Positions 28,100 to 59,199 of a stretch of DNA of 64,000 bases are shown in pieces (the stretch's first letter is position 1; every line of letters begins with the position of its first letter). The stretch lies in NCBI RefSeq assembly GCF_018350175.1, contig NC_058368.1, forward strand, positions 49,911,815-49,975,814, given 5' to 3'. A program made the translations under genes and the position numbers. Origin of the DNA: Felis catus (taxonomy: Eukaryota). A model generated the notes under the pieces. It had not been told where the DNA came from. It worked only from the letters and a program-made list of their open reading frames with translations, and did no database searches.

Positions 28100-28150
28100 T
28101 CACACAGTTTCAATAACTGCAGCAATTTCCTTGAACTGTCTGTAGAAATT
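28100..28150 (-). CDS. COMMD6: COMMD6 coding exon 4 (NFYRQFKEIAAVIETV*)
   Basis: ttttctctgcAG acceptor; translation matches the COMMD6 C-terminus; TGA at 28102-28100. Confidence 0.95.
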   Translation of the reverse strand, partial: NFYRQFKEIAAVIETV

Positions 28151-29958: not shown

Positions 29959-30111
29959 CTGAAACTGTGGAATGGTCATTTCAAAGGACTTGTTCTTCAC
30001 TTGGCCTGAATGATCCATCACCTTCAGCAACACTGCAACGTAAGGATACTTGAGAGATCTGCAACTGTCTGAGCTCACTGCCATCCCCAGTTTCCACTGA
30101 AAATCTACAAG
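29959..30111 (-). CDS. COMMD6: COMMD6 coding exon 3 (COMM domain)
   Basis: ttacAG|LVDFQWKLGMAVSSDSCRSLKYPYVAVLLKVMDHSGQVKNKSFEMTIPQFQ|GTTTGT; 153 nt, phase 0. Confidence 0.97.
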
Positions 30112-45225: not shown

Positions 45226-46161
45226 CCCCCCAAAGAGGTTCAATTTATTAAAGCCCTATAATCAATATAATTCAGCTTCAGCACATCTTACTCAACTAAA
45301 CATATGATTTGGTGTAAGTGAATGGATACAATAATTTATAAAAGACTGAATCAAAGTACACTAACCCAATAACTCAGAGCAAAGCCAGATAAGGGGGTTG
45401 ATTAATCTTTCTGAGTGCCCCCTACTTCCCAGGAATCCTCGGAAGCAATAGCATTTGGAGACAGATGACAGAGAGCAGTCAATGGACATCCCTCTGCCCT
45501 TTTATTTCTTATCTCATCCCTTTCTTACATTTTGTTTGGGCCTGGGAAACTCCTGACCTAAAATGCTCTAGTTTTAGTACTGTTCCTCTGGGAAATGTGT
45601 TATTAGGCTATCTGCCTAAAAATAATTTATTACCTGGAACAGGACAGGAACACTTAGAACAAAGAGGCATAAAAATATTTTAAAATTCAAATTCTTATTT
45701 CTGGCATAAAAAAGGTAGACATTGAAAGGTTAAAGGCGGTATACTTTCCAGCTACAAAGTAACTTTTTTAAAGACTTCGAACATGTTTGCAGCTTTACCT
45801 TTGTATACTTTAACAATTTCTTCTCTTTATATAGCACACGCCACAATACTGTGTACCTGGCTTTGAATACACTCTCAGCACGAACAGTAATTGCTCTGTC
45901 CGCTTTGGGCTGGAGTGGGTGGTGCAGGTTCAATTACAATGGCAGCAGCTACTGCGTCCGGGGCAAAGTGGAAAGAGCAATTCTAGGTGTCGGGACGAAA
46001 GTCACAGACTCGCAGACACAGGCCTTGGACTAGGGGGACAGCTGAGGAAGGCTCACGGGGGCTTGGTCCCAGGCTGACGGAGGCAGGAGGAAGGCCAGGT
46101 GCTACCGCCAGCCCCTTGCCCAGCTGACGCCGGCAGAGGGCGGGGCCGCCCATTCACTCAC

Positions 46162-46173
46162 CTGGTTGGTGAC
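46162..46173 (-). CDS. COMMD6: COMMD6 coding exon 2, 12-nt microexon (VTNQ)
   Basis: ccatttcAG|GTCACCAACCAG|GTGAGT; completes the 85-aa frame (42+12+153+51 nt). Confidence 0.92.
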
Positions 46174-46262
46174 CTGAAATGGAAGCAGAGAACACAATTT
46201 AGGGAAAGATCCCTCTAGCTCCAGAGCCCCGCTGCCCCGGCTCGTCTGAGGACAGGACTTAC

Positions 46263-46304
46263 CTTGGACTTGGCATCCAGTTGCGGCTCGCCGCAGTCCT
46301 CCAT
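46263..46304 (-). CDS. COMMD6: COMMD6 coding exon 1 (MEDCGEPQLDAKSK)
   Basis: ggtATGG...AAG|GTAAGT; similar to human MEASSEPPLDAKSD. Confidence 0.92.
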
Positions 46305-47349
46305 ACCAAACCGCTAGGGCTCACACCACCAACCGATCAGGTGGTCTGTCCCCGGGCGCCAGCACTTCCGCTTCCTCCTCCCGCCCCTCGCGGACCGGCG
46401 CACGCAGCGGAAGTAGGGGGACTTGAAACAAACATATTTGTGTAACTCACCCTGAGTGTTAATTAAATATTAGTTTCAAGGAGACACTCAGCAGCAAGGA
46501 AATTTCTATGGGGGAAAGGTCCTAAGATTTTGGAGATACCTTATGAAGTGATGGATAGATTAACTTCAGTATGCCTCCTTCCCCTTCTGACCTGGAGACG
46601 TGGACTCTTCCGGTCTGGGCCCACAGCGCTTTTTGCGCGCGTGAGCTGGCGGGCGCGCGACTAATGTATCTCCACAAAGTTCAAGAACAGCTGGATCACC
46701 ACACCCTTTCCTCCCACAGAAGTCTTTGGGCTGGGAGATCCCAGTGGTAACTATAGTTATATGATTAGCTTTTGTCACTCGGATTTACTGCACTGGCCCA
46801 GCTGCGGTGGGATGGGGATGCTATTCTTTATCACGCTGCCACTGACCTACTCCAGCCCTCTACGTGACCGTGGGAATAGCCTTCTCATCTGGTCTTCTTT
46901 CCTCTACGCAGCTCACATCCATTCTACCCAGTAGCTAAAGCGACTTCTCTTTCTCGCCAAATTTTTATTTTAAAAAACGCAAATTTTTGGAGAAAAGTTG
47001 CAAAAGCAGTTCAATGAACATCTCTATACCCTTCATCTAGATTCACCAACTTAACATTTTAACCATTTGCTTTACCTTTAGCTCCATACACGGTAATGAT
47101 GGCACCTCATCTCTAAATACTTGAGCCTGTGGCGCATTTCCTAAGTCATCACAATACTACCACAATACTACTACACAGATTTAACACTGACAAAATACTG
47201 GGATCTAACACGTCGGGCAAGTTCAAATTTCTCCAGTGGTCTCAACGACATTCTTTAAAACTTTCCAACCCTACCCACCCCCAGAATCTAATCAAGAACT
47301 ACTTGTTGAATTTAGTTATTGTGTCTGCTCCGTCTCTTCAAATCTAGAA

Positions 47350-47832
47350 CTGCACTATTGAAGGGTCCATCGGACTGCAGTGGTTTTTCACTGGACCCTC
47401 TGAGGGAGAATCTGTTCCTGGTTGTTGCCAGAACTCAGTTCAATGAAGGTCCCACTTCCTTGCTAGCTTTTGGATGGGGGTTCTCAGTGTCTAAAGGACA
47501 TCAGCATTCTTTGGCTTGTGGCCCTTTTCCTCTGTCTTCAAAGCCATTAATGGCAGGTCAAGTCCTCCTCACACTTTGAATCATTCTGACCTCCCCTTCT
47601 GCATCATCTCTCCTTTCTTGTCTTCTTTCACCAATCTCTGACTCCAGCTTGAGCAGCTTCTGTCTTTAAGGTCTCAAATGATTAGACTGAGCATACTCAG
47701 ATAATCCAAGATAATCTCTACATCTCAAGGTCCACAACCTTAAATAACCTACACAATCCTTTCAGAGCAGTACCCAGATTAGTGCCTGATTCAATAACCA
47801 GGGGAGGGGACCCTTACGGGGAGGGGCATCTT
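47350..47832 (-). mobile_element. MLT1-like MaLR LTR
   Basis: cttggcttgtggcccc and gataatccaagataatctc...tcaaggtcc motifs. Confidence 0.6.
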
Positions 47833-48709
47833 TAAAATTCTGCCTACTGCAAACAGTCATAGGATTGTTGGAGAATTACATTAGTTAACACATGTAAAAC
47901 CCCTAGAATTGTGCCTGGCATGTAACACTGAGAATCTGTGCCAAACAGCCACTGACTCAAGGTTATTGGACATGATTAAAAGTCCTAACTGGCTTGGGAA
48001 CATAGCGCTGAATTAATCCAGTGGTTTCTTTCCTATAAAGGAAACTCTGGATAGGACACTGGTGATGCATCCCACTGGTATGTGCATCAATTCTGTTTGT
48101 AAGGGAATATTTCTCTGAAGTTCTTGGTTGCCATCATATTATGATCCATGTCAAGATTATGCTCCTTGGAGGGCTGCATGCCTGCACACACGCATACACA
48201 CACATACACACATACACACACTCAAACACTTCTTAATTACATAAAAATGCTTCCAAAAGGTGAAAAGATGATATAAAGAAGTTAATTTTTGTGTTTTTCA
48301 CACAAAAAGGTTTTTTTGTATGTTTTTTTGTTTTGTTTTGTTTTTTTAGACATAAGTGTCCCTTTTCAAAAATCTATTGATAAAATTTGGGGAGAGTAAG
48401 ATGTCAGTAGAGTTCAGGCCAATCTTGGCCCATCGTTAATCTTGTTCTTGCGCTCTTGACACTTCATCAGCACATAGGATCAAGTGCTTTTTTTTAAGAC
48501 CTCCATCTTATAAAAGATCAGAATGTATGCAAGCTTCAGACTTGAAAAACACAGATTTTGTGAATAGAGTCAAGAAAAATGCTAAAATTAAAGATGTATA
48601 GGCATAACTTCTGCTTCATTTATATTTATTTTTTGTGATTATGTGTAAATAAGACATAAATAAGAAAACGTTTTTTTGGAACTGTTTTTTAAAAATTATT
48701 TTACTTATT

Positions 48710-48947
48710 TTTTTTAAATTTTTTTCAATGTTTTTTTATTTATTTTTGGGACAGAGAGAGACAGAGCATGAACAGGGGAGGGGCAGAGAGAGAGGGAGAC
48801 ACAGAATCGGAAACAGGCTCCAGGCTCCGAGCCATCAGCCCAGAGCCTGACGCGGGGCTCAAACTCATGGACCGCGAGATCGTGACCTGGCTGAAGTCGG
48901 ACGCTTAACCGACTGCGCCACCCAGGCGCCCCATTTTACTTATTTTT

Positions 48948-48988
<41 letters not shown>

Positions 48989-49170
48989 TGTGTGTGTGTG
49001 TGTGTGTAAGCAGGGGAGGGGCAGAGAGAGAGGGAGACACAAAATCCAAAGCAGTCTCCATACTCTGACCTGTTAGCACAGAGCCGGACACAGGCCTCAA
49101 ACTCATGTACCATGAAATCACGACCTGAGCCGGAAGCAGAAGCTTAACCAACTGAGCCACCCAAGCCCCC
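48710..49170 (-). mobile_element. Young felid SINE (~48710-48932) inserted in the tail of an older CAN-SINE (~48935-49170)
   Basis: TSD attttacttattttt flanks the young copy. Confidence 0.9.
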
Positions 49171-49977
49171 CTTTTTTTGAGCTCTTAAACAAACAAACAA
49201 ACAAACAAACAAAATGAGCACTGACCGATGTATAGGAGGATGTCCATAAAACTATGGCATGAACTCTGACCTCACAAGGGTTACAGTGTAATGGAGAAAA
49301 TATAATTGACACACATGAAGAAGTAATACTTCAATCTAAGCTTTATTTTAGGGCTTTTTTTTGTGTGTGTGCCAAGTGGTATTAGCCCAGCTCAAACTAG
49401 CCTGAGAAAAATAGCAAAATCATCGTCTCATAGGCATGGCCTCTGAAATGTAAGGGTAGAGCCAACTGCAGGAATCTCATAGAATTATGAGACTTGAATA
49501 GCAAAGGGACCAAACTCTGTTTCTCAACTGTAATCTGACCTTCAATTTGTCTGTTGGCTTCATTCTCTTAGGCTTCTCCATATCTGCCTATGGACACATG
49601 ACTTCTAGCATCTCTGAGGTCATAACCTGTGGTTTATAATCCAAAGGGAAAGAGAAAGCTGCTCTCCCATCTCAATTCTTAGAAAGGAGACCAATTTGCT
49701 TGTTTGGGTCGTCTGTTTACCCCTTGGACCAATACTGGATTTAGGGTGATGCAATACTATTCTTTCCCTATGTCCCGTGTTGTGGCCACAAGAGGTAGAA
49801 TTGTATAATTGGCAGAGTCACTAGTAGCAAAAGGGATAAGAAGATGCACCCTAGGAGGTGCAGGTGAGGACAATGCCACAAAACTTGGATGAAAAGATAC
49901 TGAAGGAACAAAAACAACAGATAACCACTAAATACATTTACTAATACTGTATTATACTATTCTACACAGTCAGTGGA

Positions 49978-51237
49978 TGTGGTAGGCAGAATAATGGGCC
50001 CCCAAAGATGTGTTAAAAGATAAACTGAGGCCAATCAAAAATTTTAAGAGTTTATTTGAGCAAAAATCGATTCCAATTGGGCAGTGCCATACCAGAAGTC
50101 GGTTAGGAACACTCCACTGATGGGAGCTCAGACAGAGATTTCAGAGAGAAATGGTAGAAGCAAAGTAAGGAAAATATTGATTGGCGGTGGCTTAAGCCTA
50201 GTTGTCTAGTTATGATTTGGTTGCCCTTAGTATTTTGGTCCCATAACCTTGAGGCATTTGTAGGCACAGATTTTGGTTTGCTTACGTAGGCCACCACAGA
50301 GCCATCCCAGTCTGATGGCCTCCATGTTTAATTAATTTAACAAATATTCACTTCTAAATCCCCAGAATCTATGAAAATACTGTGTTACATAGCAAGGGAG
50401 CATTAAATTTACAGATGGAATTAAGTTTGCTAATCAGAGAATCTTTAAAAAGAATTTTTTTAAGTTTATTTATTTTGAGAGAGAGAAAGCACAAGTGGGG
50501 GAGGGGCAGAAAGAGAGGTGAGAGGGAGAATTCCAAGCAGGCTCCGTGCTGCCAGCACAGACAGAGCCCAATGTTGGGCTTGAACCCCTGAACTATGAGA
50601 CTGTGACCTGAACCAAAGTTGGATGCTTAACCAACTGAGCCACCTAGGCTCTCCTCAGAGAATCTTTTTTTTTTTTTTAATTTTTTTTTCCAACATTTTT
50701 ATTTATTTTTGGGACAGAGAGAGACAGAGCATGAACGGGGGAGGGGCAGAGAGAGAGGGAGACACAGAATTGGAAACAGGCCCCAGGCTCCGAGCCATCA
50801 GCCCAGAGCCTGACGCGGGGCTCAAACTCACGGACCGCGAGATCGTGACCTGGCTGAAGTCGGACGCTTAACCGACTGCGCCACCCAGGCGCCCCAAGAG
50901 AATCTTAAAATAAGGACATGTTCCCGGATTACTGAGGTGCCCAGTGTAATCACAATGGCCCTTATATGTAGAAGATGGTGACAGAGGAGTTAGAGTCAGA
51001 GAGAAAGTGTCAGTGGTGGAGGCCAAGAGCCAAGGAAGGCAGGCAGATTCTTGAAGCTGGAAAAGGAATGAAAATGAGTTCTCCCATCCAGGAGTCGAGC
51101 CTGCTAACACCTTGACTTTAGCCCAGTGAGACCAGTTTTAGACTTCTGACCTTCAGACTGTAAGATAACAAATTTCTGTTTTTCAAGTCACAGAGTTTGT
51201 GGAAATTTGTTCCAGCAGTAATAGGAAACCATGACAG
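49978..51237 (+). mobile_element. MLT1-like LTR carrying a nested LTR-like element (50011-50342) and two SINEs (~50452-50655, ~50667-50895, minus)
   Basis: tgtggtaggcagaataatgggcccccaaagatg start and ccagcagtaataggaaacc end; nested element bounded by tgttaaa...tttaaca. Confidence 0.8.
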
Positions 51238-51634
51238 TGCTGGAGGCTGTAGAGTCACTTAGGCCTGAATCTGAATCTAAATCATTTGACTTACACGGTT
51301 TTTATTAAACGTTAAATGGGATCACATATGTAAAGCACATAATTGGTTCCTATTATCACCATCATGCTATTCAGTCCTCAAAAGAAACCTATAAGCTATC
51401 TATATCATGCATCATCTCCATTTTAAAGATGAAAAAACTGAGGTTCAAGAATGTTAAGCAACATCACCTGGCTAATAGGGAAAACTTCCAATTCCGCTTT
51501 TAATTTACGGTCTGCAATCTAATTTCAGAGAACTCCAGAGGGACTCCCAGAGTAGGTGCCGAAATCCTTCTCAGCTGCCTTGTGCTAACTGAATGTTCTA
51601 CTTATTCTCCAGGATATTCAAGAATATGAGTGAT

Positions 51635-51635
<1 letters not shown>

Positions 51636-51680
<45 letters not shown>
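51636..51680. repeat. (TG)n microsatellite
   Basis: Uninterrupted TG run. Confidence 0.95.
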
Positions 51681-51681
<1 letters not shown>

Positions 51682-52496
51682 TGGGGGTGGGAGGTTGGAG
51701 ATAGCAGTAGTCATCAATGGTCAACATAAGCAAAGATGCAGAATTGGGAATAAACCATAATCACTGATCCTAGATTCATAGAGGTTTTAGAGTTTAAAGC
51801 AGATTACGCAAATTCTTAGCCTTTCAGCCAACCTGGCCTACCCATGTATTTAAAACCAAACAAGGAAAACAAAACAAACTATATCAAAAACTGAGTAAGA
51901 ATGCATTTAGATACCTTTTAGATGTTACAGTGTGTCATTGTCCCCACATTCCTTTTTCATTTCACCCGGCCAATTGGCACATTTATCTGAAACTTGCAAG
52001 ACACAGGTTTCAACTTTTGGCTGAAAGTGACCTTATAGAGTCTGTTATTTAAAATAAGACCTAAGTAGGTTAAGTGCCTGGCTTATAGAAACATGGCTAG
52101 ATTATGGTAGTCATGACTTCTGATCAAATGGGGAGAATTATTAAGCTGTCCCACAGGCAGATGAGGCCAAATAATGTAAGGTTAGGATATGTTCTTAAGT
52201 ACTGCAAAAACGTACGTTTTGCAATGGTGGTTTGGCAATGAGATGCAGGTTCAAGGCAGGTGATGACAGGATCCATATCCATACAGTAGGAAGACAGCTA
52301 GACATATTCCTATTTAGATAAATAATATAAGACAGTGAGTAGTCACAGTGGTACACCACAAATGAGTTACAGGTGTACAGAGAAATTGATCCCCATAGTT
52401 TTCTAGGGAAAACTGGGTGGCCCTGAGCCTAGAAGATTCCCTGGGCTGGTTAACACTGTGAGGACAACCTTATTTGATTGGCAGGTGTTATTACAA

Positions 52497-53400
52497 ATGC
52501 TGCATTTTATCCATTGTTAGATTCCTATTTTTTCACATTTGACATCTCAGCAATCACAATGCACATTGCATCAGATGGCTTCTTATAGTGACAGGTAGCC
52601 AGGCAGCAGCTGTGACCCAGTTATTTTTGTCAGTGCATGCATGAACTTGGTCACAGCTGATCAGCACTTCTACTGAGTTATGGGTATTGTTGGCTGTATA
52701 CTTACTATATTTAACCGCCATGTAAAGTGTCTTTAGAAAGATTATGCTTTGACTTGGCCTAACAAAAGTTACTAGGTATGGAAATAGAACAATGGGTATC
52801 AGTAAGGCAAATATGGCTCATTGGAGGAATGACCAAAAATCCATGTTTTCTTACAAAACAATCCAATAATTTACAGTTCCTAAAAATAGGTAGATGGCCT
52901 TGAGTAGATAAAACAAAAAGGTAGCTTATTCCGGTTTAAGGTTGGAATAATTGCCAAATCGCTCAGAATATAAAAATGAAACCTATAAGGATGAGAGAGC
53001 AGGTTTTGAGACACAACAACTTTTGTTAAGACATCAAACATCACTTTGTCAGAAACACCCTGCTATTTTTGAGTAGAAGTTACTGAATTTTCATCAGTGG
53101 CTGAGAAAATGAATTAGTGAGTTTAGTCAAGTAAGAAATGGTGACAAACCTTGATATTCTTTGACAACCATCGAAATCAATCTGTAAGTGTTAAAGTCAA
53201 TAAAAGTGCATGGATTATTTGATATTGCTGATCTGTATCACGTGGGGAGAAAGGTTGGGAAACACTGGAATACATAATAAATTCTGCAGGGGCTTTAAGA
53301 AAGAATTTTAGGATGGATCAAGGGTGAAAAGATGTGAAATTTCAGCCAAAAATAACTTGAAAAATGTCCAGACTCATTCATGATCAATGAAAATAAAAAG
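52497..53400 (+). mobile_element. Ancient Tc1/pogo-like (Kanga/Tc2-type) DNA transposon remnant
   Basis: cacatttgacatctcagcaatc...gatggcttctta end motif and degenerate transposase N-terminus (ISKANMAHWRND). Confidence 0.5.
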
Positions 53401-54465
53401 ATATTTTACAATGCACTAAGTTCTAGGATTTTTCTCTCTTTTAGACTCCTCTCTCATGCTCCTCACTTACCTCCTTTTTTTTTTCTTTTTATCCCCCTCC
53501 TTCTCATCCTCTGTCTCTCTCTCATTGTCCCCTTCCTTCTCCAACCCTCCTCACACTCTTCTCTCAGGAAGAGATGTGTAGTAACGATATGCTGTTGCTT
53601 GTTTTCCTGCCAACTTGGATGTCCCTGGGTCTCAGGGTGTGGAATTTTTCTGGATGGACAGTTCAGAGGAATGCTGGCACCTGCTGTTGTAACAATACTT
53701 TGTAGCCTCCTCCAATCCCCAGCCTATCTTCTGAGTACCCTTCTCTAACTGTCAGCATGTTCACTGCTCTTGTCTCTTTCCGGCTTTGAAAAGAATTCTA
53801 GATCTGGCTGCAGGAAATATAGGTTGAAGTCCCATTCTGCCACCTGTGAAACCTTGGGAAACAATTTAAACTCTCCAAGCGGTAGCTACTGTGTTTGTAA
53901 TATGGTGACATCTCTCTCTCTCTCACCTGCCTGCTTGTCAGACTGTAGTGAGGATCAAACAAATGCGTGAGAAGGGTCAAAGTTTCTATGAAGAGTAAAG
54001 CCTGAATTAAGTCTGAATATATATTATTGTTTCATTGCTATAATAACATCTCACTTAGTTAACATAGTTGGACAGTTTACTAACAAATTAAATTGTATTA
54101 ACATATACATTTAAAAATTTCTGGAGGTAAAACTACACATCTTTATTTGGCTATTAGAATTTGAGCAAGTGTATCAATTACCTATATTCCTTTTAATTTG
54201 ATTATTTATAAAGTTTTGGCAGGTATAGTAATTAGTTGCTGCTAATTGGTTTGTTCTCACAAACTACCCCTTCCCCAACACACACAAATTCCCAATGTCC
54301 TACTACAAGCAAATATTTATTTAGCTTACATTTCTCAAGGGTTAGTGGTGGGTTGGCCAGTCTAGGCTGGGCTCAGCTGAGGTGGTTCCGCTGTGCTCCA
54401 AGTGTCTTTTGCTGTGTTTCTGGGACCAGCAGGCTAGCCCAAGCACATTCTTCTCAAGGCAGTGG

Positions 54466-54579
54466 CAGAAATGCAAGACAACACGCAGAAATACAAGCTC
54501 ATTAAGGCCTAGACTTGGAACAGAAATGCAAGACAACACGCAGAAATACAAGCTCATTAAGGCCTAGACTTGGAACAGA
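54466..54579. repeat. Perfect 55-bp tandem duplication within an MLT1-like LTR
   Basis: cagaaatgcaagacaacacgcagaaatacaagctcattaaggcctagacttggaa x2, plus caga. Confidence 0.95.
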
Positions 54580-54652
54580 CTTATTTCTGCCCTACTTTAT
54601 TGACTAAAACAAGTTACATGGCTGAACTAGGTGTCAAGGAGTGGAGAAATAA

Positions 54653-55272
54653 CACACCTGATTTTCATTATTTGTGGTAGTTATGGTCTGTAAAGTCACC
54701 ATGAATACTGCTTTAGTAAATACAGAACCACTGCTCCCAGGGGAAATATCAGTTAGGTTCCTGTGAGCCTCTGATAACATTTGCATCAACAGATCGATAT
54801 ATAACCTTGTTTTATGTGTTTCTTTTTAAAGACACCTCACCTGATATACATTGTTGAATCATTAACATCAAACTCCTGGCCGACAGCACCATAACTCATG
54901 CCTGAAGGAACAAATCTAACACATGTATTTTTGGTATAAGGCACATCACAGTGCTCTTGTGTTTGGGAACATCAGACAGAATGTCTGCACAATGCTTGGG
55001 GCCATATATACACTGAAATCATCAATAAAAAGTGCAAAAATGCAAAAAAAAAATATATGGCACTAAATAGAGTGCAAAAAGGACACTTGTTTCTAGGATG
55101 AGACCTGAAACAAGGCAGAATATTGCCTGTTCACTCTCAGCTGGGAACTCAAGTTTTTTTGCCACTACACATGTCTGCAAATAACTGTGGGAGAATTAAT
55201 TTGGGGGACACAAATAATGTTAGCAGGTAGGCAGATTCAAAGTGCAGAATCCATGAATAATGGGGATCAACG
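54653..55272 (+). mobile_element. MER82-like TcMar-Tigger element
   Basis: cattatttgtggtagttatggtctgtaaagtcacc...ccactgctcccaggggaaat start; ccatgaataatggggatcaac end forms a degenerate TIR. Confidence 0.7.
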
Positions 55273-55562
55273 CTACTTTGTCCTTTAGTGGAAAAATTTT
55301 AAAGGAGGTAGATGGAGAGTTAAAAAAAATAGGGCCTATAATGCCTAATCTTGAGATCCATCTCAGATGTATTGAATCAAATCTGCATTTCAGACCCCCA
55401 GATGTTTTTGTATGCGCATTCAAGTCTGAAAAGTACTTCCCTTTAATATGATGATAGGTACATTCATGCCAGAGAGTGGTAGTTAAACCCTACAAAAGTT
55501 AGGGCCCTAGTGCAGAATTGTTATGAGTCTAAAAGTTTGGGGCATACAGGAACAATCTTTTT

Positions 55563-56075
55563 AAGGTGAAGAGTAACTTATTTCATCTTGCAACTCCTAT
55601 AATGGAAAAGAGGCAGAGTAATTGGGCCTCTTTGGCTTTTCGAGAGCAGCATATGTGACCCTGGAAATTACAGCTATAACACATTTATTGGGTAACATGG
55701 ACGGCTGACGGTTTGAGGGGGTCCCTGAGCAAGACAGTGCTCTGCAGCAAGTCCGTGCAGAAAGGCCAGCTGCCTTGCTGTTTGGCCCTATGTCTCAACA
55801 GATCCAGGGGTACTAGAGATGTCCATGGTGAGTGAGTAAGGGTGTATGTGGAGTCTTAGGTAACCCTAACAGGAGAATCACAGGGAAGAACCTCAGGGCT
55901 CTGGAGCAAGGCCATTCACTAACAGCAGGCCATTTGAAAAGCAGCCTTGGCACACCACTGAAAGCCTGGCCATAAAACTCAAGTATGATGCAACTATAGC
56001 TGCTTATCATGAGCTGGACATTTCAGACTTACCAACTCACTCTAGGGGGGTTTAACAGCAATCTGTCAGATGGAT
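55563..56075 (+). mobile_element. ERV-L internal pol fragment (RT connection / RNase H)
   Basis: Degenerate KVKSNLFHLATP, GLFGF, PEQDSALQQV, GESQGRTSGLWSKAIH, FEKQ and LLIMSW blocks in ERV-L pol order. Confidence 0.7.
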
Positions 56076-56256
56076 CAGGAGAAAGAGGAATCAAAGTTCT
56101 GGAAATTCCTTGGAGGTCAAACATCGGTGGCCAGAATATGAGTGGGAAAGTTGGAAGTTCTTCGAGAAAGGCAAACTCAGCGCAATAAAATTATCCTTTT
56201 TTTTTTTCACCCGTAAAAGCTCCTCTCCCTGAATGCCTTCTATTGGGAGCAGAGTG

Positions 56257-56964
56257 GTAAATGCACTCTACCCCAAGTCAGATCTCTGAAGTTATCATTG
56301 ACAATTTAGGCTCACCAAAGGGATATCCTATTAAAATGGTTTCTATTTAATTTGTGCCTCCTTCTCCATCTCCGTGGTTTATTGCCTTAATTCTCTCATC
56401 ATTTCACCCTTGCAAATATCCTACATTATTGACAAATTAAGTTTCTGCATATCTGATGATTCTCTTCATTCCTCAAGTATTTATCGAGCATCTATTATGT
56501 ATCAGGCACTGGGGTAGGCTTTGGGGAAACAGTGTGAAGAATTTAAAAAGACACTCCTGCAAGCCTCATGGAATTTACAGGCTGGTGGAAGAGAGATATG
56601 AAAATCCTGCTTAAAAGCCTTCAGTGGTTCCCTGCTGTTTACAGAGTGAAGCCCAGATGTCTTGATGGGACTGTCCCTCCTTACCCCTCCAGCATCACCT
56701 CCAACCAAAGCCCTTCAACCTTGCAGGCTCTGCAGCCACAGTGCACACTTCACTTCTTCTGAGCATAATCAGATATGCAGAAACTTAATTTGTCAATAAT
56801 GTAGGAAATTGCAAGAGTGAAATGATAGAATTAAGGCAATAACCATGGAGATGGAGAACGAGGCACAGATTAAACAGAAACCGTTTTAAGAGGGTATCCC
56901 TTTGGTGAGCTGAAATTGTCAATGACAACTCCAGAGATTTGACCTGGGGTAGAGTGCATATTAC
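56257..56964. repeat. ~200-bp inverted repeat (arms ~56257-56460 and ~56765-56964; spacer ~300 bp)
   Basis: Arms align as reverse complements end to end; perfect 39-bp core 56419-56457 vs 56768-56806. Confidence 0.93.
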
Positions 56965-57223
56965 ATTTCAAGGGCCCTCTCCAGCTTTACACCTTTTGCA
57001 GGGAACCTCTGGACACACCTCCCCTCTTTAGCTGCACGTCTCTTCAGTTCTACATCTCATGCTACCACTATCATATATGTATCATACTTCGTTGCAATTT
57101 TTCATTCTTCTGCCCACCTCTTCTACTCTACGGTGAGTGCAGTGTCTGATTCATAATAGGTGCTTGACATTTTTTTCATAAATAACTAAATAGGTATATA
57201 GAGAGCAACCCCCCTCCCCCCTC

Positions 57224-57228
<5 letters not shown>

Positions 57229-57273
<45 letters not shown>

Positions 57274-57283
57274 ACACACACAC
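57229..57283. repeat. (CA)n microsatellite upstream of the UCHL3 promoter
   Basis: CA run with one GA interruption. Confidence 0.93.
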
Positions 57284-57844
57284 TCTGCAATAGCAGATGA
57301 GGCTGACATATCACCTCTGCACCGTGGCAAAGGAGCTTTTGGGACTTGACTCCTGGGCATTCACTGGCCTTCAGGCCTCCTGATGCATGGCAATCCCGTT
57401 GTTCGCTCTTAGAATAGGACTCAGTGGCGCGCCCCCTAGCGCCTCCAGCTGAAGCTGCAGGAACGGGAGGGCGCCCGCGAGCATGAGGTCCCAGGCCCGC
57501 GCAAGGCGCAGGCGTAGCACGCGAGCGCTAGGCTCGGATGGGAACAGTCCAAGTGAGAGGGGAGCTAGCTGTGGATTCAGATTCTTTTTCCTTTTTCAGT
57601 ACGGAGATGGCTTATCTTGTCTTCTCCGATTGTATCTTAATTTAAAATGTAAGACTTGAGTGTGGCTCTGCAGGGAAGGAGAAAAGCACTAGAGTGTTTT
57701 GTCAAGCTGTTTTTCGTTCTTCAGCACCCCTCCCTGGGGGGGGGGGGTGGAGGAGGGTTGGACGGTCCCAGGTCAGAGCGCGCGGGGGCGGAAGCGGCGG
57801 CGGCTGCTGCTGTCAGAGCTGGAGAGGGGCCGGGCGGAGCGGCC

Positions 57845-57886
57845 ATGGAGGGTCAGCGTTGGCTGCCGCTGGAGGCCAATCCCGAG
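57845..57886 (+). CDS. UCHL3: Ubiquitin C-terminal hydrolase L3, coding exon 1 (MEGQRWLPLEANPE)
   Basis: gccATGG Kozak context; matches the UCHL3 N-terminus; GAG|GTGTGC donor. Confidence 0.96.
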
Positions 57887-58003
57887 GTGTGCGCTGCTTG
57901 GATCTCGGCTTGAGGCCGCGGGCATGGGCGGAGGGAAGCGGGATGCCGCGGCTAGTCCAGAGCAGTTTGTTTCTATAAATTGTGTTCTCTGTTCCGTTTT
58001 CAG

Positions 58004-58015
58004 GTCACCAACCAG
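58004..58015 (+). CDS. UCHL3: UCHL3 coding exon 2, 12-nt microexon (VTNQ); later exons lie beyond the window
   Basis: ttttcAG|GTCACCAACCAG|GTGAGT; continues ...ANPE-VTNQ. Confidence 0.94.
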
Positions 58016-59199
58016 GTGAGTGAGGTGTCTGTCGCTGGGGACCCCGGAGCCCTCCCTGCCTGCCTGCACCTCTGATCTTCCTAGGAATCTGGAATTAGAT
58101 TCAGTGAGGGCCCCTCTTGCTTTGCTTCATACGGGTGTGCCCCCTTTACGGCCGTATCCCTACCACCTAATTCCTGGAGATGCTCCCGGCTATTTCAGCC
58201 CTTCCTCTGGGGCCATTCCCCTGTCATCCTGGGGTCTGGGTCTGAGGCTTGTGGCACATTGACCCTGTATTCCTATTTCTCTTCCCTCTTCGTTTTGCCT
58301 CCTGCTAGTGCCAATTCCATAATTTCCCAACTCCTGTACCTTCTGGGTGACTAATTTGTCTACACTACCTGACTCCAAGCTTTGAAAACTCGCCCACCCA
58401 GTCCTTGTAATTTCATCCACCGCCTGCACTATGAAATCATCTTCCAATCATCTTCTCTTGCTCCATCAAGTCACTTGTCTTCCCCGCCACGCCCCCTTTC
58501 TCTTCCAGTCCCTTAAAACTGGAATTTAGTTGTTTCTATACCATAGAAAGCTCAGTATAATAGTTCCCACGCCATTCTTGGCCCACCTACAAACACTTCA
58601 AGTTCGTCTGGGTATTGAAGGTTCAAGTTTGGGGTGGGAAACATCTCCCAGCCACTCCATTAAAAGTTATTGTGCTACCAGGTATAAACTTTTGATTTGC
58701 TCAGGTGTATTTTATCTTAACCTGTTTTAAATTCTCATCAGCTCATTTACTTTTTATGGCCCTTTTAGCTTGTCATCTGATGTACGTTCCCGCCCCCCCC
58801 CCCATAATTTTCCTTTTCATCATCAAGGAATAATGATTCATCACATACTTGATTTTTGATTTTCAAAGCTTGTAGAAAAATTCCTTATATACAGAAAGTA
58901 GATAGAAACGCTTGATCTTAATGTTGACAGTAAATCTTTCATCTTATGCAGTTTATTGTATGTTTTTGAAATGACTCTGGAACTCTTGTCTCTTTAGTAA
59001 TCCTGAGATGTACAAAACTTAAAACCCTGCATATATCTTTTATATTGTGCTTTAGATGGCATTCTCTATATGCATGCTAATTTTCTTTTGTTTCCCCCTT
59101 TTGAAATTTGCTGTTCATTTTTTCCTTAAAATAGTTTCACCCCTTTGTAAAGAGAGAAAAATCTTTAGGCTGAAGAAATCATTTGCACCTTCTGATTTA

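Follow-up and report, generated by a model that had tools for sequence, protein, structure and literature searches.

The first two exons of COMMD6 are, with a probability of roughly 80%, an old inverted partial copy of the 5′ end of UCHL3, joined in frame to the exons that encode the COMM domain. In the window, by which we mean the whole 64,000-nucleotide stretch of Felis catus DNA analyzed here, the two genes form a head-to-head pair, with COMMD6 on the minus strand, UCHL3 on the plus strand, and 11,541 nt between their ATGs. The coding part of COMMD6 exon 1 (46263..46304, minus strand, as for all COMMD6 features given here) starts with the ATG at 46304, which together with 39 further nucleotides makes up MEDCGEPQLDAKSK; it ends in phase 0, and its peptide is the N-terminus of the cat protein model P0109. 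It is followed by an intron of 89 nt with GT..AG borders (46174..46262) and by exon 2 (46162..46173), a 12-nt microexon, GTCACCAACCAG, that runs from phase 0 to phase 0 and encodes VTNQ. Exon 3 (29959..30111), with a phase 0 acceptor, carries the main part of the COMM domain in 51 codons (LVDFQWKL...IPQFQ), and its translation matches the Felis catus COMMD6 model at 100% identity. The last coding exon (28100..28150; NFYRQFKEIAAVIETV plus stop), located by a six-frame motif search, agrees with the C-termini of the orthologues, and the COMM domain profile PF07258 matches P0109 with an E of 4e-15, which identifies it as a COMM domain protein.

On the plus strand, the coding part of UCHL3 exon 1 (57845..57886; MEGQRWLPLEANPE), the proposed source copy, begins with the ATG at 57845 and ends in phase 0, and it is followed by an intron of 117 nt (57887..58003) and by a 12-nt microexon, exon 2 (58004..58015), which also encodes VTNQ. 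Exon 3 (G000:C1:49977527-49977667, plus strand) lies 1.7 kb past the end of the window and is 100% identical to UCHL3 in many mammals; together with exon 4, also just outside the window, it matches PF01088. Residues 1-15 are the same as in solved human UCH-L3 chains, and the exon 1 peptide is identical in 26 orthologue models. By its N-terminal motif and the exons that follow, the plus-strand gene is a peptidase C12 UCH-L3. COMMD6 and UCHL3 therefore have a common 5′ layout, consisting of an ATG, a 42-nt phase-0 exon, a short intron (89 and 117 nt, respectively), and a 12-nt exon. The preliminary description had reported this layout, a spacing of about 11.5 kb, an identical 12-nt VTNQ exon, and a gapless match of 26/42 nt between the exon 1 sequences, and all four observations were reproduced here. 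As a separate observation, COMMD6 and UCHL3 are each found on contigs of equal size in alligator, Xenopus, and coelacanth.

The microexon and its surroundings are the sole statistically unambiguous part of the similarity between the two genes. They form a 54-nt inverted repeat (I8), with one arm in COMMD6 (46154..46207, minus strand), which holds a branch-point/pyrimidine region, the microexon, and the donor site, and the other in UCHL3 (57970..58023, plus strand). Each arm is made up of the microexon, the 34 intronic nucleotides that precede it, and 8 nt of donor-site sequence. The arms are identical at 48/54 positions (89% complementary), including 12/12 in the microexon and a 16-nt exact match, TAAATTGTGTTCTCTG, in the intron. 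Pairwise blastn gave the block an E of 3.9e-15, and when the whole 2.43-Gb genome was searched with the 186-nt UCHL3 unit, the COMMD6 copy was the only non-self match (E 1.3e-10). As a control, the equivalent 54 nt at the UCHL1 microexon were compared with UCHL3, and only 29/54 were identical; thus, splice signals alone cannot account for 48/54. With their opposite orientation, a genome-unique similarity that exceeds functional requirements, and exon 1 colinear upstream in both genes, the arms fit an inverted segmental duplication, whose extent outside these parts is not detectable.

It is unusual for intron sequence to retain 89% identity over more than 160 million years, and gene conversion, rather than constraint, could be the reason. 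The duplication would then still be old, and non-allelic conversion between the inverted copies, which lie 11.8 kb apart, would have kept or refreshed the block in place of purifying selection on splicing elements. The abrupt fall from 89% to random identity at either edge of the block (upstream, 18/55; downstream, 17/60) has the look of a conversion tract, and the first 55 nt of COMMD6 intron 1, aligned without gaps, do not resemble UCHL3 intron 1; the perfect agreement of the cat microexons would also fit. In several lineages, however, the microexon peptide of COMMD6 has moved away from that of UCHL3 (VTDQ, VTSQ, VTGQ, VTCQ, VTTQ, and VTNK), whereas UCHL3 is constant as VTNQ in mammals, so homogenization is not general. 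Furthermore, placentals have kept SEPxLDAKS, an exon 1 sequence specific to COMMD6, and 6/54 positions of the block still differ. We consider conversion an unlikely, though not negligible, explanation for the preservation of the block.

For exon 1, the 26/42 match ranks first among the ~128,000 positions that the two strands of the window offer (runners-up 24 and 23) and also among 2,380 ATG-anchored 42-mers (runner-up 23), although taken on its own it would be weak as a sign of common descent. One may thus ask whether the microexon block alone, of about 54 nt or slightly more, came from UCHL3, by duplication or as a gene-conversion tract in a COMMD6 intron, so that exon 1 and the promoter of COMMD6 would be independent and the 26/42 would be a coincidence between GC-rich first exons that start with ATGGAGG. 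Such an origin is consistent with the cat exon 1 peptide, which has only 4/14 residues in common with UCHL3, and with the gapped local alignment of the sequence upstream of the block, whose score of 22, against a null of 21.4, is reached by 426/1000 shuffles. Nevertheless, it leaves to chance the equal coding length, the equal phase, the similar distance upstream of the microexon, and the first rank of the match in both comparisons, as well as the 6-8/14 residues (MEG, P, L, E, A, E) in common between UCHL3 and the exon 1 peptides of marsupials and of the placental consensus. For instance, opossum COMMD6 exon 1 (MEELCQPPLEAKSE) has 7/14 identities with the marsupial UCHL3 sequence ME(G/S/T)HRWLPLEANPE, and other marsupial COMMD6 models keep the MEG start. 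Marsupial exon 1 is thus nearer to UCHL3 than that of the cat, as expected under divergence from a common sequence. We regard an independent exon 1 as rather improbable.

The homology of exon 1 to its UCHL3 counterpart is suggested by several weaker lines of evidence. The promoter regions of COMMD6 and UCHL3 show no significant similarity (p about 0.1-0.7), and pairwise blastn found nothing beyond the 54-nt block, so that the copying of exon 1 and the promoter is argued from position, length, phase, and a modest identity. Thus, of the inverted duplication of the UCHL3 promoter and exons 1-2 put forward in the preliminary description, the microexon block and the two exons find support, and a copy of the promoter is not detectable. 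UCHL3 exon 3 and the exons after it have no detectable counterpart on the COMMD6 side; a tblastn search of the window with full UCHL3 (P0243) recovered UCHL3 exon 1 itself (E 1e-5), and all other matches had an E of at least 1.8. The COMMD6 leader corresponds to the first 18 codons of UCHL3 only and does not have the complete UCH fold with its catalytic residues (PF01088, 211 positions); by sequence it is probably derived from a UCH gene, yet it is no UCH protein. As for chance or convergence, in which unrelated microexons with similar splice signals would both encode VTNQ, the block does hold generic signals (TTTCAG and GTGAGT) and the UCHL1 control already reaches 29/54, but the 48/54 identity, the exact matches of the 16 intronic and 12 exonic nucleotides, and the position of the sole non-self match in 2.43 Gb next to its source gene, with a colinear layout, make it extremely improbable, and the genome-wide search and the UCHL1 control effectively rule it out.

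The distribution of the leader was followed in 227 proteins of the COMMD6 set, a comparison at the level of protein models. A VTNQ-type peptide stands directly before the COMM exon in 74 annotated or assembled models, with the junction VTNQ-L(V/I)D, and in 18 further models exon 1 is joined straight to the COMM exon, the microexon being skipped. The named models with the leader are all from placentals (all four superorders) or marsupials, except for one entry labeled as a tick, whose sequence is of the placental type. Opossum and sloth have COMMD6-like copies elsewhere in the genome that retain the VTNQ-L(V/I)D junction; these copies and the 74 models lend indirect support to in-frame splicing of the leader exons to the COMM exon. 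Direct read evidence in the cat is thin, with one read that covers 46262-46387, up to the donor of exon 1, and then continues into unlike sequence. The VTNQ of the COMMD6 copy is the form seen in amniotes, and most therian copies also have a final E, as in the mammalian NPE, which fits a copy made from UCHL3. The echidna COMMD6 model consists of MEGVGPPPARSPQ followed by the COMM domain, without VTNQ, and the platypus model begins differently. At the protein level, the ME..VTNQ leader was not found in the retrieved non-mammalian COMMD6 models, whether long or short isoforms.

According to the available text of the Commander papers PMC6089597, PMC10187114, and bioRxiv 10.64898/2026.02.02.703414, human COMMD6 alone among the COMMD subunits lacks an HN domain, which the COMMD6 of fish and amphibians has; that text gives no origin for the HN-less form. 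We found no paper describing a UCHL3 origin for the start of COMMD6. A COMMD6 HN-domain profile matched 37/227 models, all of them non-mammalian and of about 130-230 aa; these models, from birds, reptiles, amphibians, and fish, whose COMMD6 is ~200 aa long, end in ..VGQ before the COMM exon and have no VTNQ. No mammalian model among the 227 matched the profile, and PF21672 (COMM_HN), the N-terminal helical domain of typical COMMD proteins, was absent from 12/12 mammalian models scanned (nine longer ones plus cat, wallaby, and echidna) and present in the alligator control. Both the truncation of mammalian COMMD6 and the long helical N-terminus without VTNQ that had been predicted for outgroups are thus borne out by the protein models. 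HN-coding sequence was detected neither in the window nor in the cat genome, where only residues 140-192 of turtle COMMD6 have a match, which lies at the COMMD6 locus. In the full-length COMMD6 of turtle (P0198), alligator (P0191), and Xenopus (P0223), the COMM exons are orthologous to those of the cat (74-78% over 51 residues), and the COMM exon apparently begins with the same L(V/I)D, since two Xenopus isoforms differ up to that point. The difference lies in the N-terminus, with about 135 residues (HN, ending in ..VGQ) in place of the therian 18-residue ME..VTNQ leader.

That the copy went from UCHL3 to COMMD6 is supported by the conservation of the UCHL3 N-terminus in vertebrates and by a homologous 12-nt exon in UCHL1. 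From fish to mammals, UCHL3 keeps the N-terminus M..RWLPLEANP(E/D)V(T/M/I)NQ, and coelacanth, gar, and bowfin have 226-aa UCHL3 isoforms that lack exactly the four microexon residues. In the cat genome, UCHL1 has a 12-nt exon 2 encoding MLNK after an intron of 117 nt, as had been indicated in the preliminary description for the exon. Exon 1 ending in NPE, a 117-nt intron 1, and a 12-nt exon 2 that is alternatively skipped and encodes VTNQ or MLNK are common to UCHL3 and UCHL1, whereas the copy in COMMD6 has two exons only and its peptide has lost the W.PLE.NPE motif.

Under the duplication of the UCHL3 5′ end that we favor, a short piece of this gene would have been duplicated in the mammalian stem lineage, after the sauropsid split and before the divergence of marsupials and placentals, and placed, with its orientation reversed, at the COMMD6 end of the head-to-head pair. 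The piece would have comprised the first coding exon, an intron 1 of roughly 100 nt, and exon 2 (12 nt) together with the splice signals around it, and the core promoter was probably copied along with them. The donor site of the copied phase-0 microexon would then have been spliced to the phase-0 acceptor that the COMM-domain exon already had, giving an 85-aa mammalian COMMD6 with an 18-residue UCHL3-derived leader (ME....L.A...VTNQ) before the COMM domain; the ancestral HN-domain exons would have been lost, and the copying may have caused this loss, accompanied it, or come after it. The element TAAATTGTGTTCTCTG and the pyrimidine tract may have been retained in both genes because each needs them for the recognition of its 12-nt exon. 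It is possible, but in our view doubtful, that one inverted duplication provided the new promoter, the start codon, and both leader exons of COMMD6 and at the same time disconnected the HN exons, with the intronic element and pyrimidine tract controlling microexon inclusion in both genes ever since. If this were true, one structural mutation would have reduced the number of HN domains in the COMMD ring of Commander from ten to nine.

The COMMD6 locus offers a concrete genetic route to a new gene start, in which the 5′ module of a neighbor would have been copied, flipped, and spliced to the COMM exons, a change dated before the marsupial-placental split. The pair would thus be a clean and very small case of promoter-proximal exon capture between head-to-head neighbors, of a kind that escapes protein-level paralogue searches, since it concerns no more than 18 residues. 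The model yields predictions for the marsupial, monotreme, and sauropsid loci, and the shared intron element is a ready target for studies on 12-nt exon recognition.

Microexons often have conserved intron flanks, and the 12-nt exon of COMMD6 and UCHL3 is similar in having a strongly conserved upstream intron and a strong GTGAGT donor, with a putative role in splicing. Here, however, the conservation is between paralogous copies in different genes and not between orthologues. Chimeric genes that arose through partial duplication and exon shuffling include jingwei and Sdic in Drosophila and TRIM5-CypA in primates. As in those cases, a fragment of one gene appears to have given another gene new 5′ exons, and probably regulatory sequence, and a phase-compatible (0 to 0) intron junction replaces part of the recipient protein. 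In contrast to them, the donor is the immediate head-to-head neighbor, the copy is tiny (about 170 nt detectable) and inverted, and the leader adds 18 residues but no domain. The event is also old, at least therian, and has been fixed in a housekeeping subunit of the Commander complex.

COMMD6 and UCHL3 lie head to head, with 11,541 nt between their ATGs, and it is probable, at roughly four chances in five, that COMMD6 exons 1 and 2 are an inverted copy of UCHL3 exons 1 and 2, older than the marsupial-placental split. On the minus strand, the coding part of COMMD6 exon 1 (46304-46263; MEDCGEPQLDAKSK) is followed by an intron of 89 nt, a 12-nt exon 2 encoding VTNQ (46173-46162), an intron of about 16 kb, an exon 3 of 51 codons for the COMM domain (30111-29959), which is 100% identical to the Felis catus COMMD6 model, and a last coding exon at 28150-28100; the sum of these coding exons gives the canonical 85 residues. 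On the plus strand, the coding part of UCHL3 exon 1 runs from the ATG at 57845 to 57886 (MEGQRWLPLEANPE) and is followed by an intron of 117 nt and a 12-nt exon 2, also VTNQ (58004-58015), with exon 3 located 1.7 kb beyond the window end. The preliminary description had claimed 42-nt first exons in phase 0, these two lengths of intron 1, identical 12-nt exons (hereafter, microexons) and an ungapped exon 1 match of 26/42, all of which were borne out by the window sequence.

The similarity is in fact stronger than had been stated, because it continues into the introns. An inverted repeat of 54 nt, with its opposite arms at 46154-46207 and 57970-58023 and 48 of 54 positions identical, comprises a 16-nt exact match (TAAATTGTGTTCTCTG) about 15 to 30 nt upstream of the acceptor site, the microexon and GTGAGTGA. 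When the whole 2.43-Gb genome was searched with the 186-nt UCHL3 unit, its sole match besides itself was this COMMD6 copy (E 1.3e-10), and pairwise blastn between the COMMD6 and UCHL3 sides reported only the 54-nt block. The UCHL1 microexon, a control with similar splice signals, agrees with UCHL3 at 29/54 of the equivalent positions, and in the flanks of the block, ungapped identity drops to random (18/55 and 17/60). The retained intron element may be read as a putative splicing requirement of the 12-nt exon. Alternatively, the identity of the block could be due to later gene conversion between the two copies; the COMMD6 microexon peptide drifts in rodents, rabbit, rhinoceros and others, whereas that of UCHL3 remains VTNQ, which argues against general homogenisation. 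A larger duplication was rejected, as the two genes showed no similarity over the initial 3 kb of intron 2, and none of the UCHL3 exons from exon 3 onward was found on the side of COMMD6. The nine loci in metagenome contigs that match a 20-nt pattern of the microexon plus splice site were likewise rejected as mammalian DNA and are chance matches, because each of them is rich in GC, has unrelated flanks and is not mammalian.

The exon 1 similarity is weaker than that of the block. Its score of 26 ranks first out of about 128,000 positions in the window, where the next scores are 24 and 23, and again out of 2,380 42-mers anchored on an ATG, where the next is 23. When the whole part upstream of the block was aligned locally with gaps, the score was not above shuffles, being reached by 426 of 1000. 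An ETS-like motif of the GGAAGCGG type is found 47-63 nt upstream of each ATG, and its occurrence in both promoters is not above shuffles either. A compact CpG-rich core surrounds the COMMD6 start, and both promoter sides present a CpG-rich block, an AT-rich gap and a CpG-rich core in the same arrangement. At 46420-46700 and 57400-57700, upstream of the core promoters, the AT-rich gap measures about 130-150 nt and is followed by the second CpG-rich block; sequence similarity behind this common layout was looked for between these two segments and was undetectable. Promoter capture by COMMD6 is plausible and statistically not demonstrable. The earlier interpretation of an origin of COMMD6 exons 1 and 2 from an inverted UCHL3 copy is supported, and a causal link between this copy and the loss of the N-terminal helical domain may exist.

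With respect to the direction of copying, vertebrates share a conserved UCHL3 N-terminus, which reads MEGQRWLPLEANPEVTNQ in 26 of the models listed, MEPHRWLPLEANPDVTNQ in those of birds and reptiles, and ..NPDV(M/I)NQ in frogs and fish, and exactly the four microexon residues are missing from the 226-aa UCHL3 models of coelacanth, gar and bowfin. UCHL1 in the same genome shows ..EINPE, a 117-nt intron and then a 12-nt exon encoding MLNK, as the preliminary description had stated for the length of its exon 2; since UCHL1 has this intron and 12-nt exon like UCHL3, the microexon layout predates the split between them. Outside mammals, COMMD6 protein models are without an ME..VTNQ-type leader. Taken together, the conserved UCHL3 N-terminus, the UCHL1 layout and the absence of the leader from non-mammal COMMD6 indicate that UCHL3 was the source of the copy and COMMD6 its recipient. 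The leader in COMMD6 has the amniote form VTNQ, and the terminal residue of its exon 1 is E in most therians, like that of mammalian UCHL3 NPE. At the UCHL1 locus itself (L022 2108-2245, G000:C11, minus), exon 1 ends ..MQLKPMEINPE before the MLNK exon, and intron 1 has exactly the length of UCHL3 intron 1 (117 nt), the intron sequences being unalike. Elsewhere, a UCH-family copy that lacks introns and contains stop codons (G000:C15:122088765-122089356; Peptidase_C12 positions 1-199) is likely a retrocopy.

The use of the COMM exon as a query twice gave 226 proteins (P0002-P0227), and the distribution that follows refers to protein models only. A V(T/S)xQ/K peptide immediately precedes the COMM exon in 74 models, and exon 1 is joined straight to it in 18 more. 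Named carriers of the leader are all placental (including tenrec, manatee, sloth and many Laurasiatheria and Euarchontoglires) or marsupial (including wallaby, dunnart, devil, opossum and monito del monte), except for one tick-labelled entry. This entry, P0026, is an 85-aa COMMD6 labelled Ixodes ricinus with a placental-type sequence (MEGSSDPVLDAKAKVTNQ....); its most likely source is RNA of the host carried along in the tick sample. In therians, the consensus reads MEG(S)SEPxLDAKSEVTNQ, and the marsupial leader MEGLCQPPQEAKSE(VTNQ), and in opossum, PPLEAKSE of COMMD6 compares with LPLEANPE of UCHL3. A profile of the COMMD6 N-terminal helical (HN) domain matched 37 proteins, ending ..VGQ ahead of L(V/I)D, from birds, reptiles, amphibians, coelacanth, ray-finned fish or shark only; outgroup COMMD6 with an HN domain and without VTNQ had been predicted, and all 37 agree. 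Pfam COMM_HN is absent from nine longer mammalian models as well as from cat, wallaby and echidna, and present in the alligator control. Monotreme COMMD6 also appears to be short, the echidna model having MEGVGPPPARSPQ plus COMM in 80 aa without VTNQ, and the platypus model begins differently.

As for the fate of the HN exons, tblastn of 32 long N-terminal parts against the window gave scattered weak matches only, and a profile built from 30 true HN domains reached a best E of 1.2 over 3,421 fragments of the window in six frames (4.4 in the reversed-window control); neither search revealed a relic of these exons in the window. The matches of P0138 and P0168 were rejected as HN relics, both being mammalian models without an HN domain. 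The N-terminal part of P0138, a goat hypothetical COMMD6 model, matches 54269-54508 on the minus strand (E 9e-9, 41% over 80 aa), a segment that may represent an alternative upstream exon or merely spacer sequence, conserved in either case. Turtle COMMD6 matched the whole genome through its COMM-domain part only (residues 140-207; 140-192 at this locus), and a second genomic match to the COMM-domain end of this turtle protein lies at G000:C47:40803174-40803332 (47% identity).

An element resembling a palindrome, about 700 bp long (56261-56959), lies in the spacer between the two genes, with inverted outer arms of 119 nt (56261-56379 and 56841-56959; 89%) and inner arms of 50 nt (56415-56464 and 56761-56810; 94%); it is possibly a foldback or DNA-transposon remnant. 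At 51636-51680 and 57217-57285 there are long (GT)n and (CA)n microsatellites, the second of which adjoins a C-rich run some 560 nt upstream from the ATG of UCHL3. Some database models (P0144-P0149 and P0275-P0283) fuse neighbouring genes of this cluster. For instance, pig TBC1D4 models contain the COMMD6 COMM domain, and in chimpanzee and baboon, the N-terminus of UCHL3 and a Peptidase_C12 domain stand at the start of LMO7 models. All of these models represent read-through across the gene cluster.

If COMMD6 exons 1 and 2 were copied from UCHL3, the copied unit would have brought a start codon and an exon of 14 codons, separated by a short intron from a 12-nt exon whose donor site is strong. 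This last exon ends in phase 0 and would have been spliced onto the acceptor of the COMM exon, which is also in phase 0. Two Xenopus COMMD6 isoforms diverge right up to the residue preceding LVDF, which suggests that the acceptor position at LVDF was already present in non-mammals. The microexon is optional in protein models of both COMMD6 and UCHL3. The use of the COMMD6 exons is backed mainly by database models: the first 69 residues of the cat model P0109 equal the conceptual splice of exons 1-3, and the exon 1-2-3 junctions are retained in copies resembling COMMD6 at other places in the genomes of opossum and sloth. Two raw-read RNA runs over 46050-46450 gave three reads in total with no joints listed; one read spans 46262-46387 before passing into a dissimilar sequence, in keeping with the donor site of exon 1. 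One contig run spans 46050-46247 and may be DNA, and another gave nothing over 46050-46450.

Passages on COMMD6 without the HN domain in PMC6089597, PMC10187114 and bioRxiv 10.64898/2026.02.02.703414 offer no origin. The listed titles and abstract openings that treat COMMD6 with UCHL3 hold nothing on gene origin. Among the openly accessible papers listed, we found nothing on a chimeric origin, microexon, inverted duplication, exon shuffling or bidirectional promoter for COMMD6, and no literature on the UCHL3 microexon. The COMMD family was reportedly first described in Burstein 2005 and de Bie 2006. The birth of a chimeric gene by partial duplication and exon shuffling is a well-known kind of event, of which the probable UCHL3-derived start of COMMD6 appears to be an undescribed instance.
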